IMG/VR virus record: IMGVR_UViG_3300022864_000001
Location: 32,001 to 96,000 of that record
Reading direction: 5' to 3' (one strand)
Length of the DNA stretch: 64,000 nt
Source: a virus
Part shown: positions 2,374 through 9,859 of the stretch, in pieces
How the letters are laid out: the number at the start of each line of letters is the position of its first letter
Numbering within the stretch: position 1 is the stretch's first letter
The notes under the pieces: model-generated
What the model saw: only the letters and a program-made list of their open reading frames with translations
Database searches by the model: none
Told to the model about the DNA's origin: nothing
Program-made: the position numbers and the translations under genes

Positions 2374-2505
2374 GTGAGGATGCGACATGAGACGGGTTGT
2401 TGCAAGACCCAATAGAATAATCGCGAAAGTGCCCCCAGGGCAGACCGTCTCATCTCCACATCCTCACAAGTGATGGCGTTGTAGCAGTTGCCTTGGGGGC
2501 TTTTT
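2374..2505 (+). ncRNA. structured leader RNA (c4 antisense-like architecture)
   Basis: Stem GCCCCCAGGGCA/TGCCTTGGGGGC encloses CCGTCTCAT and CATCCTCAC, which are complementary to upstream ATGAGACGG and GTGAGGATG. Confidence 0.5.
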
Positions 2506-2524
2506 GCGTCAAGGAGATAGCGAG

Positions 2525-3250
2525 ATGACGCAGGGAACTTATGAGATTAAGAACAGGTTGGACGGGAAAGCATATGGTGGAAGGTCAGGAAACATTGAGC
2601 AACGGTGGCAGAATCATCTTTCTACGCTTCGCAACGACAGACACCATTGCCAGTATTTCCAGAACGCCTGGAACAAGTACGGTGAGGACGTATTTGAGTT
2701 CATCGTACTTGAAGTTATTGAAGGCCCTGACGAACGAAGGGCGGCAGAGCAGAAGTGGCTTGACATACATCACGCCAACAAGACCTGCTATAACATTGCA
2801 ATTACGGCGGGGTTGGGTGGGCCGCTGTCTGAAGAACACAAGCATAATATAAGCATTGCAAACATGGGCAACCAAAGCGCGAAGGGCAGCAAGCGTACCG
2901 ACGAGCAGCTTCGCGCTCATAGCGAGCGCATGATGGGCAATCAAAACACCCTGGGCCACAAGGCTACTGACGCGACCAGGCAAAAGCAGAGGGACGCGCA
3001 CACGGGCAAGACGCTCAGTAAAGAAACCAAGCAAAAGTTGCGCGAGGCTGGCATGGGCAACCAGAACACCTTGGGTTACAAGCACCCCGAAGAGTTTGGC
3101 CAGGCGATAAGCGAGCGCATGATGGGCAATCAACACGCCAAGGGTAGCACGTACAAGCGCACTGACGAACAGAACCGCGCGAATAGCGAGCGCATGAAGC
3201 TGTGGTGGGCAAAGAAGAAGGCGGCTGAGGCCGAGGATAAAGGGCTGTAA
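2525..3250 (+). CDS. GIY-YIG homing endonuclease with NUMOD3-like repeats
   Basis: GTYEI..AYGGRS..R..H N-terminal domain; repeated MGNQ / HxEE.K.K+ units; AAGGAG RBS. Confidence 0.85.
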   Translation: MTQGTYEIKNRLDGKAYGGRSGNIEQRWQNHLSTLRNDRHHCQYFQNAWNKYGEDVFEFIVLEVIEGPDERRAAEQKWLDIHHANKTCYNIAITAGLGGPLSEEHKHNISIANMGNQSAKGSKRTDEQLRAHSERMMGNQNTLGHKATDATRQKQRDAHTGKTLSKETKQKLREAGMGNQNTLGYKHPEEFGQAISERMMGNQHAKGSTYKRTDEQNRANSERMKLWWAKKKAAEAEDKGL

Positions 3251-3280: not shown

Positions 3281-3862
3281 ATGAGGGTCGTTCTACGCTC
3301 AATCACGCCTAGGGCCGAGAGCCTGGTAGCTGAGGCGTATGCAGCTTGTCGTGGCGGACGAGGGGAGACGGCAATTCCCCTAGAGAGTATCCAGGGGCTT
3401 GTAACCAAAGAGCCATTCCCGCACCTGTCCTGTCTTCGTCATGCCAAGGCAACATTTTATATATACGGTATTAGCAGGGTCTGTCACTCGCAATTGATAC
3501 GACATGGACTTGCAGCGTTTTCTGTAGAGAGCCAACGCAGCGTTGAGCCAGCGGGATTTGTACATCCACAGACCATTGAAGATAGTGAGTTTAGGGTACG
3601 ATACGACGCTCTTTTGCAGCACGCCAGGGTGCTGTATGGGGACATGGTAGAGGGCGGCATACCGCGCGAAGATGCCAGATATGGCCTGCCGCTATCTACA
3701 GAGACGTTTGTGGTGGCTAGCGCGAATTTTGAGCACCTGCGGTGGCTGATACAGATACGCGCATTGAATCCCCATGCACAGTGGGAGATACGCGAGATGT
3801 GCTTGAAGATGTTAGACATACTCAAGGAAGAAGCACCACACATTTTCGGTGACTTGGGATGA
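3281..3862 (+). CDS. thyX: FAD-dependent thymidylate synthase (ThyX family, variant motif)
   Basis: GISRVCHSQLIRH..FSVESQR, GIPREDARYGLP, AQWEIR. Confidence 0.85.
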   Translation: MRVVLRSITPRAESLVAEAYAACRGGRGETAIPLESIQGLVTKEPFPHLSCLRHAKATFYIYGISRVCHSQLIRHGLAAFSVESQRSVEPAGFVHPQTIEDSEFRVRYDALLQHARVLYGDMVEGGIPREDARYGLPLSTETFVVASANFEHLRWLIQIRALNPHAQWEIREMCLKMLDILKEEAPHIFGDLG

Positions 3863-6338: not shown

Positions 6339-6649
6339 CCAAACATTCACCGGGGCCGTGGCGGGCGAAGCGCATCCACCGGCACTCCAGCGACAGGGTT
6401 GTTTATGATGCCAAGGACAGCCTGGTGGCCCATATATGGATTGGCGATGATGACGAAGAGGGCCTAGCCAACCTGCGCCTGGTACTGAAAGCGACAGAAT
6501 TACTAGCGTTGGTGCAAAAGCTGCCAGGTTTTCGGTGTTACTACCCCAGCGATCAGTCCTGCCAGGATTGCCCAGAGGCAGTGTATTGTCCCCGCATGGT
6601 AGCACCCACATTACTCAAAGAGATTGACGGAGGCAAATCATGCGATTAG
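6335..6649 (+). CDS. hypothetical phage protein (KHTPGPW-type)
   Basis: MTKHSPGPW..ANLRLV..ELL pattern common in phages. Confidence 0.65.
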   Translation: MTKHSPGPWRAKRIHRHSSDRVVYDAKDSLVAHIWIGDDDEEGLANLRLVLKATELLALVQKLPGFRCYYPSDQSCQDCPEAVYCPRMVAPTLLKEIDGGKSCD

Positions 6650-7137
6650 AAGGAGCCACGCGCGTTGGCGCAGAGCGAATAGATAAAGATGCCCGCGATA
6701 CCTATATTCGCCGTCAGGCTAGTCGGGACAAGTTATTGTTCAAGCCCACGCCTGAACAGAGATGGTGCTATCAATGCGGATGTCGTATCATGCCCGGTGA
6801 CGCATACAGACAACATGGCCCCATGCGGCGCGTTCCAGGGCAAGACGCAAAGTCGAATTACGTTTGTTGGCAGTGCCCATGGGCAGGGGCATTAGACGCA
6901 CAGGCCGTGTTAGATAGCCTTACGCCAGATGCAAGGCGGTTGGCGCAGTTGTGGGCTGCACACATTGACCAACGTCACGTAACCCTAACGCGCGCGTGGC
7001 ACATTACGTCTGCGCATTTTGATTTTCACTCTTGGTGGAGCAGCGTAGAGTTGCTGGTTTCTAGCAGCGTGCTACGCATTCCTGTGGGGGTTGATGGTTG
7101 TATGATGCCACCGGCATACGTTAGGGCACTAATCTAA
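6640..7137 (+). CDS. hypothetical Zn-binding protein
   Basis: CYQC..CWQC motifs. Confidence 0.55.
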   Translation: MRLEGATRVGAERIDKDARDTYIRRQASRDKLLFKPTPEQRWCYQCGCRIMPGDAYRQHGPMRRVPGQDAKSNYVCWQCPWAGALDAQAVLDSLTPDARRLAQLWAAHIDQRHVTLTRAWHITSAHFDFHSWWSSVELLVSSSVLRIPVGVDGCMMPPAYVRALI

Positions 7138-7139
7138 GA

Positions 7140-7155
7140 GTCTTTGTACAAAGAC
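7140..7155. promoter_or_regulatory. palindromic operator-like site, copy 1
   Basis: GTCTTTGTACAAAGAC perfect 16-bp palindrome, recurring at 9840 and 56918. Confidence 0.6.
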
Positions 7156-7200
7156 CCGGGAGAAGACAGTGACGATGTAGAAGCATATGTAGTTGTTAAT

Positions 7201-7253
7201 GTGGGCAAAAGGGGTTCCTTAACATCCTTCTTAGATATATACCCCTCGCCCGC
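7201..7253 (+). ncRNA. repeated RNA stem motif, copy 1
   Basis: GTGGGC-AAA-AGGGGT-TCCTTA-loop-T-ACCCCT-C-GCCCGC. Confidence 0.7.
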
Positions 7254-7255
7254 CT

Positions 7256-7367
7256 GGGGAAGTAGCTCAATGGTAGAGCACCGGATCTGGACAATACTCT
7301 CCGCTGATGGCACAAAGAGTTCCTTATAAGTTCGGTGACGCGGGTTCAATTCCCGCCTTCCCCACTA
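7256..7367 (+). ncRNA. tRNA-like RNA whose anticodon loop is replaced by a permuted copy of the stem motif
   Basis: Acceptor GGGGAAG/CTTCCCC, D arm GCTC-AATGGTA-GAGC, T arm GCGGG-TTCAATT-CCCGC, stem CCGGA/TTCGG enclosing about 45 nt with ACTCT/AGAGT-TCCTTA. Confidence 0.8.
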
Positions 7368-7419
7368 GGGGCAAAAGAGGTTCCTTAAACAACTTTGTGT
7401 TTACCTACCTCTCGCCCCT
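7367..7419 (+). ncRNA. repeated RNA stem motif, copy 3
   Basis: AGGGGC-AAA-AGAGGT-TCCTTA-loop-T-ACCTCT-C-GCCCCT; compensatory change versus copy 1. Confidence 0.7.
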
Positions 7420-7447
7420 TTCAATAGGAAGTTACGAAGGAGATAAG

Positions 7448-9322
7448 ATGCATGCAGCAAGTTTGAGATTATTCAATGCCATTCAAGTGCGAAAGCGGGA
7501 GCCACTAGCCGTCCCACGGGGCGTCCTTGAGAGGACTATCAAGAACGGCTACATCCTTGATCCTGCAATCGAACCAAGCCCCGACCTGCTAAATACTATT
7601 GAGGGCATTGTGGGCATCTCTGGGGAGAAGGCCAGCGCTACCTTCCACAAATCTTGGGCAGTGGTGAGAGACAGCCCAATAGAGGTGCTTGTTTTGCAAC
7701 AGATATTCCATTACATCACAACCTATGGGTTTGAGGCACTGGGGGTGTACAGTGAAGATACCGTCTATATCCCCCGTGAGGCGCTGGAGCTCCCGGACAT
7801 TCAAGAAAACATCCCCCTCATTGTCATCAAGGCAATGACCGCCGGAGAGTTGTTGGATGTCACCGTTGGCCTGGGCTCGTCTGGCGTTGCCCTGATGCAA
7901 GAGACACTGGACGACATCATGGCCATCATTGAGGCTAACGAATACGACCCCGCTTTCATCGCCAAGATTACCAACCGCGAATTGAAGACCCTGCTCCTTG
8001 ACTTCTACCATGTCGTACCAGATGAACCAGTAGAGTACCTGCGCTGGCTGATCAGTAAGTTGACCGGGGAATCTCTACTGATTAAGAATGACTACCTCAT
8101 TAGCAAGATCAAGGATGCCAACGGAAAGTTCCTTGATCTATTGCTGGAGGACGCGCCTGACGACCTAGCCTCAATCTTCCTGCGCTACAAGCCGCTGTTC
8201 CTGGCGTTGAAGTCAATTTCCAAGGCTAAGCGCGGCTTTTTCAATCGCCTGCGGAAAGATGCGCGAAAGATGCACAAGCCACTGACGCCAGACTACCTGA
8301 ACAGCATCACGGCCCAAATCAAGCGCGGGGAATTGGATTTGACTACCCTGAAGCGCAGGTTAGAGACCGCAATTGTCTGGCGCAAGGCCCGCCTAGCCTG
8401 CGCCCTGCAATTCCGCCTCAATGCTGGCAATTCCACCATCTACCGTGTGCGTAACGGGCGTGGGTGGGCAACGGACTTTGAGTGGCCCGCTGACAAGGCA
8501 GAAACCGTCCAAGCTGTACTGGCCTTGGTCTTGGCCTCCATTGCCAATGACATTCGCCTGAACGTGGAGGGAAAGACCATCTACATTCCTGCTGATGTGG
8601 GCTATGCCCTCCCCGCTACAGAGAAGCAGTTCACTGGGCATTTCCCCAACGGGAGTTACGTTGCTGTTCCAGAGGATATGATTGTTGGTGTCCACTGGAC
8701 GAACACTGAGAACCGAGTAGACTTGGACTTATCAGTAATCAGCGCGTCGGGCAAGGTTGGTTGGGACAGTTCCTACCGAACTAGTTCCAGGGACGTGTTG
8801 TTCTCCGGGGACTTGACTGACGCGCCCAAGCCCAACGGTGCTTCTGAGCTATTCTACCTTCAGGCGGGGCAAACTCAAGCCAATGTTGTGATGTTGAATT
8901 ACTACAACTTCAGTGGCGGCGACCAGGTAGAAGCCAAGGTTCTGGTAGCGCATGATAAGCCAGATGTCTTTGACAAGAACTATGTAGTGGACGCAAGCAA
9001 CATTATTGCATCTGCCAACGTTAACATCGCGCAGAAGCAAAGCGTTCTGGGCCTAATCATCTGTGTCAACGCCAAGAACCGCTTTTACTTCGCCAACGCG
9101 AGCATCGGCAACTCCATCACATCTAGCAGCGGAGAACAGTCTGGACACGCACGGTCATTCCTAGTAGACAGCTTGGTGAACTCTGTGGGCCTTGGGGCAA
9201 TCTTGACAGCGGCTGGCGCGCACGTCGTTAATGAGAAACCTGGCGGAGAGTATTTGAACCTTGCCCCAGAGGCGCTGGATAAGACAACAATTCTAAATCT
9301 GCTTGGGGGGGGCAATGAGTGA
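7448..9322 (+). CDS. 624-aa protein with helical N-terminus and C-terminal TerD-like domain
   Basis: GAAGGAG RBS; TFHKSW..QQIFHYITTYG; VGVHW..VDLDLS..VGW..FSGDLTDAP..GASE resembles TerD-like stress-cluster proteins. Confidence 0.7.
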   Translation: MHAASLRLFNAIQVRKREPLAVPRGVLERTIKNGYILDPAIEPSPDLLNTIEGIVGISGEKASATFHKSWAVVRDSPIEVLVLQQIFHYITTYGFEALGVYSEDTVYIPREALELPDIQENIPLIVIKAMTAGELLDVTVGLGSSGVALMQETLDDIMAIIEANEYDPAFIAKITNRELKTLLLDFYHVVPDEPVEYLRWLISKLTGESLLIKNDYLISKIKDANGKFLDLLLEDAPDDLASIFLRYKPLFLALKSISKAKRGFFNRLRKDARKMHKPLTPDYLNSITAQIKRGELDLTTLKRRLETAIVWRKARLACALQFRLNAGNSTIYRVRNGRGWATDFEWPADKAETVQAVLALVLASIANDIRLNVEGKTIYIPADVGYALPATEKQFTGHFPNGSYVAVPEDMIVGVHWTNTENRVDLDLSVISASGKVGWDSSYRTSSRDVLFSGDLTDAPKPNGASELFYLQAGQTQANVVMLNYYNFSGGDQVEAKVLVAHDKPDVFDKNYVVDASNIIASANVNIAQKQSVLGLIICVNAKNRFYFANASIGNSITSSSGEQSGHARSFLVDSLVNSVGLGAILTAAGAHVVNEKPGGEYLNLAPEALDKTTILNLLGGGNE

Positions 9323-9560
9323 ATCTACTCCCTATCTAGGCCAAAAGGTTGTCTTGAACACATTGTTGTGCGAGGGTGATTTCCTGGGCGAGATAGTTGA
9401 AGTGCGCCCCGAACTCTTGCCCTACCCCCGTATGTGTGTTGTTAGGCTAGAATGCCAAGAAGCTCCTGTTTCTGGCGTGTTGTATTATGCTGAACGGCCA
9501 GAAGAGGTTTTAAATGTGTTGTGGCAAGTGTGTTGGCCTAGAAGCGAGAAGGGAGAGTAA
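9315..9560 (+). CDS. hypothetical protein
   Basis: ORF overlapping the upstream stop. Confidence 0.55.
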   Translation: MSESTPYLGQKVVLNTLLCEGDFLGEIVEVRPELLPYPRMCVVRLECQEAPVSGVLYYAERPEEVLNVLWQVCWPRSEKGE

Positions 9561-9561
9561 A

Positions 9562-9840
9562 ATGGACGAACGCGTGTGTGAGATATGGTTGCGAAACGAT
9601 GGACGTAATGAGCGCGTAGCCTCTTTGGCATATTGCCCTGGGGGCCCTCCAGAAATAGAGGTGTCGTTTAATCTGCGGACGTGGCGCCACCTAATGCTAT
9701 TGCTGGTGCTAGGTGCGCGATATGTTCTGAGCTGCAAGACCCGATTTGTCCTGCGAGACGAGCTGGTTATAGGCCGCGAGCAGGCTGGGCGGATTGCTGT
9801 ATTCCTAGGCAATTTCTTGGCGGATACACTAGTAGAGTAA
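9562..9840 (+). CDS. hypothetical protein
   Basis: GGAG RBS. Confidence 0.5.
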   Translation: MDERVCEIWLRNDGRNERVASLAYCPGGPPEIEVSFNLRTWRHLMLLLVLGARYVLSCKTRFVLRDELVIGREQAGRIAVFLGNFLADTLVE

Positions 9841-9859
9841 AGTCTTTGTACAAAGACTT
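9840..9859. promoter_or_regulatory. palindromic operator-like site, copy 2
   Basis: AAGTCTTTGTACAAAGACTT perfect 20-bp palindrome. Confidence 0.65.

Follow-up and report, generated by a model that had tools for sequence, protein, structure and literature searches.

The window analysed here is a stretch of 64,000 nucleotides (nt) from a complete 116,028-bp IMG/VR phage record with direct terminal repeats (IMGVR_UViG_3300022864_000001, bases 32001-96000), and positions below are those of the window. Three structured RNA elements follow one another on its plus strand: a hairpin, a tRNA-shaped element at 7256-7364 and a second hairpin, which we call hairpins 1 and 3 by their place in the array (Table 1). 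A gene for a protein of ~620 amino acids (aa), hereafter the partner protein, begins 81 nt downstream of the tRNA-shaped element. An earlier description of this DNA, made from its letters and referred to here as the original prediction, read the element as a natural tRNA scaffold in which a permuted copy of the motif from the flanking hairpins takes the place of the anticodon loop. We found that all three elements carry one handle motif, that this motif defines a conserved RNA family tied to the partner protein gene, and that within the family the handle and the tRNA body are joined at one junction in two permuted topologies.

A tRNA body with a handle in place of the anticodon loop

The Rfam tRNA model RF00005 matches 7256-7364 with 62.2 bits (E 4.9e-13, gathering threshold 29). 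The match fills all 71 model positions, and the surplus bases fall at the anticodon loop. Together with direct reading, this score bears out the earlier claim that the acceptor, D and T arms are intact. The set of tertiary-contact nucleotides is complete (U8, A14, G18G19 and the T loop GGUUCRANYCC); the G3:U70 alanine identity pair is absent. Instead of a 7-nt anticodon loop, the anticodon stem encloses 45 nt (7286-7330), as had been estimated, and A7364 is followed by CUA at 7365-7367, which agrees with the predicted A-CTA, not A-CCA, end. The minimum free energy (MFE) fold of 7190-7430 runs from hairpin to cloverleaf with an extended anticodon arm to hairpin (z = -3.2). Features relevant to processing are the 7-bp acceptor stem, a U at position -1 and the end of hairpin 1 lying 1-4 nt 5' of G+1. 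A pseudogene or intron call had been expected from tRNA gene finders. ARAGORN returned an intron call only when introns were allowed, and then as an arbitrary 'tRNA-Tyr(ata)' whose 38-nt intron would sit at a non-canonical site; in its default mode the element at 7256-7364 is not called.

Direct reading of 7296-7324 confirms that the two halves of the motif stand in swapped order with a short closing loop. The 3' half comes first (ACUCU-CC-GC, 7296-7304) and, past the short loop, is followed by the 5' half (GGC-ACAA-AGAGU-UCCU, 7309-7324). Helix P2 of the insert has only 5 bp, versus 6 bp in most relatives, because its first pair is an A-C mismatch. Since the permuted handle is mounted on the anticodon stem, the acceptor stem holds the chain ends of the RNA.

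A structured RNA family linked to one protein gene

A homolog profile built from 16 proteins retrieved 75 prokaryote genome loci and 80 loci on viral contigs. In almost every locus, a two-half pattern of the handle occurs in 1-7 copies just upstream of the gene. The pattern does not fix three of the P2 positions; across 175 distinct hairpins these are paired in 98-100%, with up to four Watson-Crick types. In an alignment of 63 sequences (A3), 94.2% of cells are paired and the covariation score is 0.598 versus 0.197 in shuffles (0 of 500 shuffles as high), while pairing falls to 36-55% when the partners are slid. The consensus handle starts with a P1 helix of GGC/GCC, lengthened by variable pairs, and an asymmetric internal loop with A-N-A on the 5' strand opposite a bulged C. 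P2 follows, formed by R-NNN-G-U with A-C-NNN-Y (its ends are G-C and U-A), then a single-stranded UCCU and a variable loop. The string GGCA-N-A-R-G is present in 63/63 aligned copies. The array of the window has P1, the A-N-A loop with its bulged C, P2 and UCCU, and lies on the strand of the gene and adjacent to it.

A covariance model of the linear handle (R1) gave 288 matches, 84 of them in the 75 genome loci and 204 in the 80 viral loci. Every one of the 288 lies on the strand of the gene, with nearly all of them in the 600 nt preceding it and a few immediately behind it. The motif was found in 130 of the 140 loci that have at least 300 nt of upstream sequence, and its density is 1.59/kb near the gene versus 0.05/kb elsewhere. 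In four whole carrier genomes (2.7-12.5 Mb, 150 candidates scored per genome), R1 matches occur solely beside the gene; in the whole phage genome there are two linear copies only. No second conserved neighbour gene was found among the loci examined. The conserved unit is the RNA array plus the ~620-aa gene. The insert had been called aptamer-like, a label for which we found no support: because the linkage to one protein gene is tight and strand-specific, the motif is better read as a protein-binding handle.

Exact-pattern and single-protein scans of viral contigs gave no match, nor did a blastn search of 6600-9400 against GenBank phages. In an Rfam search over 6900-7600 at E up to 10, tRNA alone was significant, with no ribozyme, riboswitch or other family. 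The handle family is not in Rfam 15 and is undescribed in the literature searched (YrlA, TerD, tRNA-like, TROVE and phage as topics; subscription journals were outside the coverage). This large family of handle-marked small RNAs is apparently undescribed.

The tRNA-embedded form recurs as well. In ~30 loci ARAGORN, run with introns allowed, calls a tRNA-like gene 111-133 nt long at the corresponding place. An alignment of 27 such elements (A5) has a constant order: tRNA 5' half, U-rich linker, UAC-NNN-YCGC, short loop, GGCA-N-A-R-NNN-GUUCCU, linker and tRNA 3' half. The full structure of A5 is 94.7% paired, and two-sided changes are seen in 19 of 29 pairs, spread over the acceptor, anticodon, P2 and T helices (0/500 shuffles match). 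A second covariance model (R2), built from the 27 homologous elements, scores 93.8 bits over 7255-7366 in the window; ordinary tRNAs reach at most 65 bits. About 34 elements in ~30 loci score at least 89 bits, including those of the non-seed loci L095, L089 and L137; in L089 and L137 the element is found downstream of the gene. Metagenome-assembled genomes labelled Anaerolineae, Desulfobacterales, Desulfobacteraceae and Kapaibacterium, as well as viral contigs, keep the succession hairpin, tRNA form, hairpin and gene at near-equal spacing. About one third of the elements encode CCA after the discriminator (L009, L010, L018, L019, L022, L077 and L082), which may be taken as a sign of tRNA-type end maturation.

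Some loci show further arrangements. In Marinicella meishanensis NBU2979 (L022, 3564-3978) three tRNA-embedded units stand in tandem, each with a GCCA end. At L006 (3752-3928) one acceptor/D frame surrounds two permuted handles and two T arms. At L082 (3620-3744) the loop of a linear handle is a complete collinear tRNA joined via its acceptor stem.

YrlA is a modular RNA composed of a protein-binding stem and a tRNA-like domain (Chen et al. 2014, PMC4201824; Rfam RF02553). Some R1 matches have loops of ~85-95 nt, which fold into a permuted tRNA domain with the order anticodon-stem strand, T arm, loop-closed acceptor stem, D arm and other anticodon-stem strand. This YrlA-like form, with the handle outside, was found in L026, L069, L047, L044, L128, L130, L107, L092 and L115. 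In both topologies the P2 5' strand runs through UCCU and a linker into the 3' strand of the anticodon stem, whose 5' strand is in turn connected by a linker to the P2 3' strand. Given this identical connectivity, the window form and the YrlA-like form differ solely in the site at which the chain is opened. The suggestion that the element is a permutation of the YrlA design is thus borne out, both topologies being present within one RNA family, and the structure and conservation of the element likewise support its description as a natural tRNA scaffold with a permuted copy of the flanking motif. We are close to certain of the structure with its conservation and covariation, of the permutation and of the exclusive linkage to the gene.

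Table 1. Positions of the RNA elements and of the partner protein gene in the window, and of handle RNAs in two cultured cyanophages
Feature	Position	Strand	Basis
tRNA-like body	7256-7364	+	RF00005 62.2 bits; cloverleaf is the MFE fold
Acceptor stem, 7 bp	7256-7262 / 7357-7363	+	sequence reading
U8 and A9	7263-7264	+	sequence reading
D arm	7265-7279	+	sequence reading
Anticodon stem, 5 bp	7281-7285 / 7331-7335	+	sequence reading
Variable loop, 4 nt	7336-7339	+	sequence reading
T arm	7340-7356	+	sequence reading
Discriminator	A7364	+	sequence reading
3' trailer CUA (CCA not encoded in window copy)	7365-7367	+	sequence reading
Permuted handle insert, 45 nt, replacing the anticodon loop	7286-7330	+	direct reading; 27 homologs alike
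Insert, linker	7286-7295	+	
Insert, P2 3' strand	7296-7300	+	
Insert, CC	7301-7302	+	
Insert, P1 and closing loop	7303-7311	+	
Insert, internal loop ACAA	7312-7315	+	
Insert, P2 5' strand	7316-7320	+	
Insert, UCCU	7321-7324	+	
Insert, second linker	7325-7330	+	
Handle hairpin 1, linear	7200-7255	+	R1 56.7 bits, E 1.6e-13; in seed alignment; fold
Hairpin 1, P1	7203-7206 / 7248-7251	+	
Hairpin 1, 5' internal loop AAA; bulged C	7207-7209; 7247	+	
Hairpin 1, P2	7210-7215 / 7241-7246	+	
Hairpin 1, conserved single-stranded UCCU, then variable loop	7216-7219	+	
Handle hairpin 3, linear	7366-7421	+	R1 59.2 bits, E 3.2e-14; in seed alignment; fold
Hairpin 3, P1	7368-7372 / 7414-7418	+	
Hairpin 3, internal loop AAA; bulged C	7373-7375; 7413	+	
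Hairpin 3, P2	7376-7381 / 7407-7412	+	
Hairpin 3, UCCU	7382-7385	+	
Partner protein gene, 624 aa	7448-9322	+	>1570 homologs
Shine-Dalgarno-like AAGGAG, 5 nt before ATG 7448	7437-7442	+	direct reading
S-CRM01 handle RNAs	L160 2246-2473, 4327-4383		R1
S-CBWM1 handle RNAs	L161 2419-2476		R1

The partner protein and the carriers of the module

The partner protein, which has more than 1570 homologs at 35-69% identity, matches no Pfam, PHROG or PADLOC family, and the Pfam TerD family itself gave no match. The AlphaFold model (predicted local distance difference test, pLDDT, 87.6; predicted template modelling score, pTM, 0.88) has an N-terminal helical domain (~1-375), a TerD fold (~407-572) and a small C-terminal domain. 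The assignment of residues ~407-572 to the TerD fold in this model is backed by fold matches (VIA Z 10.4 to 2qz7_B over 143 residues with a root-mean-square deviation of 3.0, and Z 9.3 to 2kxt; Foldseek probability 1.0 to 3ibz, 2kxt and 2qng). Residues D425, D427, D455 and E467, which belong to the acidic Ca-binding motifs of TerD, are invariant. A partial NCBIfam match over residues 398-476 leads to the MXAN_6230/SCO0854 RING-domain family (E 3.4e-9, 35.5 bits versus a cut-off of 600). In the ESM Atlas only 'hypothetical protein' clusters, mostly viral, were retrieved, with Prok-RING_4 clusters as the nearest named neighbours. It is probably the TerD-like domain that is shared with both the MXAN_6230/SCO0854 and the Prok-RING_4 proteins.

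We looked for kinship with Ro60 in several ways. Pfam TROVE does not match the partner protein at E <=0.01, and a 42-homolog profile found no chain in the PDB, Ro60 entries included, at E <=10. There is no TROVE gene in the whole 116-kb phage or in five carrier genomes, and no TROVE protein in 81 sampled genomes. As sequence and fold searches gave matches at noise level at best, a relationship to Ro60/TROVE is unproven.

To judge from the alignment of homologs and from the AAGGAG at 7437-7442, the real start of the gene is likely ATG 7448, in which case automatic gene calls overrun the RNA array. The longest open reading frame (ORF) starts at ATG 7307, inside the tRNA-like RNA, and the database product P0001 (641 aa) starts inside hairpin 3.

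The neighbours of the array are phage-like and include thyX, a GIY-YIG homing endonuclease and a helix-turn-helix/ribbon-helix-helix regulator. The GIY-YIG/NUMOD3 homing endonuclease gene (2504-3250) lies immediately upstream of thyX (3281-3862; Thy1 E 4e-39). Three ordinary tRNAs are found in the window ~42 kb away on the opposite strand. A T4 Rnl1-type RNA ligase (PF09511, 44.9 bits; 355-aa frame) is encoded outside the window, ~12 kb upstream (G000:C1:27197-27766); RtcB was not found in the phage. Perfect palindromes on GTCTTTGTACAAAGAC were noted at 7140-7155 (16 bp) and 9840-9859 (20 bp). Both GTCTTTGTACAAAGAC palindromes stand directly 3' of stop codons (of ORFs ending at 7137 and 9840), neither is followed by a T run, and the pair encloses the RNA array, the 624-aa gene and two small ORFs. 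The GTCTTTGTACAAAGAC palindromes could be operators, RNase III sites or atypical terminators.

Across the family, canonical tRNA genes occur within 4 kb in about one quarter of loci, and 247/254 of them share the orientation of the gene. Two cultured cyanophages, S-CRM01 and S-CBWM1, have the homologous gene (g174 and gp22, respectively) inside a tRNA cluster with R1 handle RNAs beside it, and in neither are these RNAs annotated. An antisense ORF of S-CRM01, g173c (locus 2291-2437), overlies the RNA array and is probably spurious. In phage T4, the small stable RNAs C and D are encoded in the tRNA cluster and are co-processed with tRNAs.

A proposed tRNA-mimic particle and its alternatives

With moderate confidence, we suggest that the module encodes a Y-RNA-like particle, in which the partner protein binds the handle and RNase P releases a tRNA body with an open acceptor. 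The RNA array would be transcribed together with, or just ahead of, the ~620-aa gene. A cut by RNase P at 7255/7256, followed by 3' trimming and CCA addition, would separate the tRNA-shaped RNA from the two hairpins; the original prediction, in which RNase P and 3' processing set three separate RNAs free, is plausible in view of the anatomy of the array. We infer that the handle is the binding site of the partner protein, which would thus be bound to the handles, and that the tRNA body serves as an adaptor or mimic. The particle would then present the tRNA elbow and acceptor end to host or phage factors that recognise tRNA, as YrlA does for Ro60/Rsr.

Several observations weigh against this proposal. 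A recognised RNA-binding domain is absent from the partner protein. When its helical domain is modelled by itself (pLDDT 80), no fold match is significant (best Z 7.3, over a helical hairpin), and the comparison with Ro60 (Z 5.7 over 68 residues to 1yvp_A; Foldseek E 0.4 to 9nep_A) is at the noise level of helical proteins. The handle of the window copy is weakened, with a P1 of 2-3 bp and one mismatched P2 pair. Neither a sigma-70-like promoter nor an intrinsic terminator scored above shuffles around the array. The conserved UUCCU is complementary to the Shine-Dalgarno-like AGGAA/AGGAG, so a role in cis is possible for the copy nearest the start codon. Moreover, the functional steps are inferred for every member of the family.

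A related but doubtful reading takes the module for a convergent ribonucleoprotein unrelated to Ro60, with at least three interchangeable topologies. The open-acceptor RNA would here be matured like a tRNA, possibly aminoacylated, and would engage, sense or block factors acting on tRNA 3' ends. Candidate targets could include anti-phage toxins that modify CCA or attack the acceptor, EF-Tu and repair enzymes.

It is less likely that the array is a cis-regulatory leader, in which the handles are 5' untranslated region operators for translational autorepression by the protein, or UUCCU pairs with the Shine-Dalgarno sequence, and the tRNA body stabilises or punctuates the transcript. The position of nearly all copies, at most 600 nt upstream and on the strand of the gene, would suit such a leader, as would the end of the last copy ~25-40 nt before the start codon in many loci and the complementarity of UUCCU to AGGAA/AAGGAG at 7427-7442. 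However, arrays are also found downstream of the gene (L137, L145, L110, L089 and one S-CRM01 copy), copy number varies from 1 to 7 or more, and many copies come joined to a complete tRNA mimic that has an RNase-P-type acceptor stem and an encoded CCA, features that would be superfluous for an operator. We also consider it improbable that the RNA is a tRNA mimic independent of the protein (a sponge or decoy working through elbow and acceptor) or an RNase P/Z punctuation mark, with an insert irrelevant to function. The full set of tertiary contacts (U8, A14, G18G19, T loop), the investment of the phage in tRNA repair (Rnl1-type ligase) and the location of about a quarter of loci within tRNA clusters speak for it. 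Yet the insert is conserved as much as the tRNA body, covaries, and is the same motif as in the free hairpins. Arrays without tRNA are common and, therefore, punctuation is not required. The original prediction had offered a decoy for tRNA-targeting nucleases. For known anticodon nucleases this is unlikely, as the missing anticodon loop leaves them without a target, but a decoy for enzymes that act on the elbow or acceptor end is possible.

Two further explanations have very little to recommend them. A small self-cleaving ribozyme, or a mobile repeat inserted in a tRNA gene, is very improbable. Circular permutation and tandem arrays are typical of small ribozymes, permuted forms are known for the hammerhead and twister ribozymes, and the insert contains CUGAUG, which resembles a hammerhead box; CUGAUG, however, is not kept in homologs, and no Rfam ribozyme matched at E up to 10. 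The copies stay undispersed on the flank of one gene and on one strand, and further copies are absent from the genome of the phage itself. The least credible view is that of a decoding tRNA from which an intron of 38-45 nt is removed to give a normal tRNA. The body is indeed a very good tRNA, and an ARAGORN call can be forced when introns are allowed, but such calls among homologs span ~13 amino acids and intron positions 30-39, no anticodon is conserved among 27 homologs, and no bulge-helix-bulge motif is formed in the fold. We reject this view because neither anticodon nor splice motif is conserved; in addition, the insert is a conserved, covarying motif that also occurs in hairpins without tRNA and experiences the same selection on structure as they do. 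Group I introns are far larger than 45 nt. The carriers are mostly bacteria and their phages, which are not known to have a tRNA splicing endonuclease.

Relation to known tRNA-like RNAs and meaning of the module

Like YrlA, the element joins a tRNA-like domain with T arm, D arm and acceptor stem to a protein-binding stem, and the handle meets the tRNA mimic at the anticodon stem. Some relatives of the window element share the exact architecture of YrlA (PMC4201824). The window element itself is its inverse, having the chain ends at the acceptor stem and a loop-closed handle. The handle also differs in sequence, reading GGCA-N-A-R ... GUUCCU ... UAC ... YCGCC and not the Ro-binding stem motif GNCGAAN0-1G (PMC4201824). 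As with Ro60 and Y RNAs, the RNA genes adjoin the gene of the protein partner in bacteria and phages; unlike Ro60, which combines TROVE and vWA domains, the partner here is a helical plus TerD protein. Membership in the YrlA family was tried and rejected (RF02553 15.3 bits, E 3.6 versus a threshold of 69; no TROVE gene in the phage).

The Y-RNA-type tRNA mimic of M. smegmatis likewise ends up with an open acceptor stem bearing CCA. Its open acceptor, however, results from cutting a closed loop, so that the RNA is in two pieces, whereas the RNA of the window is in one piece and its open acceptor is the native topology of the transcript. Natural circular permutation is known for transfer-messenger RNA (tmRNA), in the form of two-piece permuted molecules. 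The window element resembles tmRNA as a tRNA-like, non-decoding RNA, but lacks a tag reading frame and the G3:U70 pair; the model of permuted tmRNA, RF04321, was rejected at 13.8 bits versus a threshold of 47. Ponchon and Dardel reportedly introduced in 2007 an engineered 'tRNA scaffold' for recombinant RNA, which holds a foreign structured RNA in place of the anticodon loop. In that design, too, the insert is said to gain the tRNA processing and stability of the cell. The engineered scaffold is a laboratory construct, whereas the window form occurs in nature, is conserved across phyla and comes with a protein gene dedicated to it.

What is new here is that the inside-out, open-acceptor topology is a conserved variant and that one junction is common to both topologies. 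The family thus offers a case of natural circular permutation inside one RNA family, in which the junction is constant and the chain ends shift from the handle to the acceptor stem. Such a permutation is direct comparative evidence for independent folding and action of the handle and the tRNA body, and it shows that some lineages have a use for a free acceptor end. The window form is the natural counterpart of the engineered tRNA scaffold.

Handle RNAs are overlooked by current annotation: default ARAGORN leaves them blank, and gene callers start the protein in hairpin 3 or put spurious antisense ORFs over the array. Cultured carriers, among them the cyanophages S-CRM01 and S-CBWM1, Marinicella meishanensis and strains of Cyanobacterium and Geminocystis, make the family accessible to testing. 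The module occurs in hundreds of phages as well as in bacteria and archaea from many phyla, and its protein has no annotated family. If the particle is real, it would represent a second, widespread solution of the Y-RNA type, built from a protein and an adaptor RNA that mimics tRNA.

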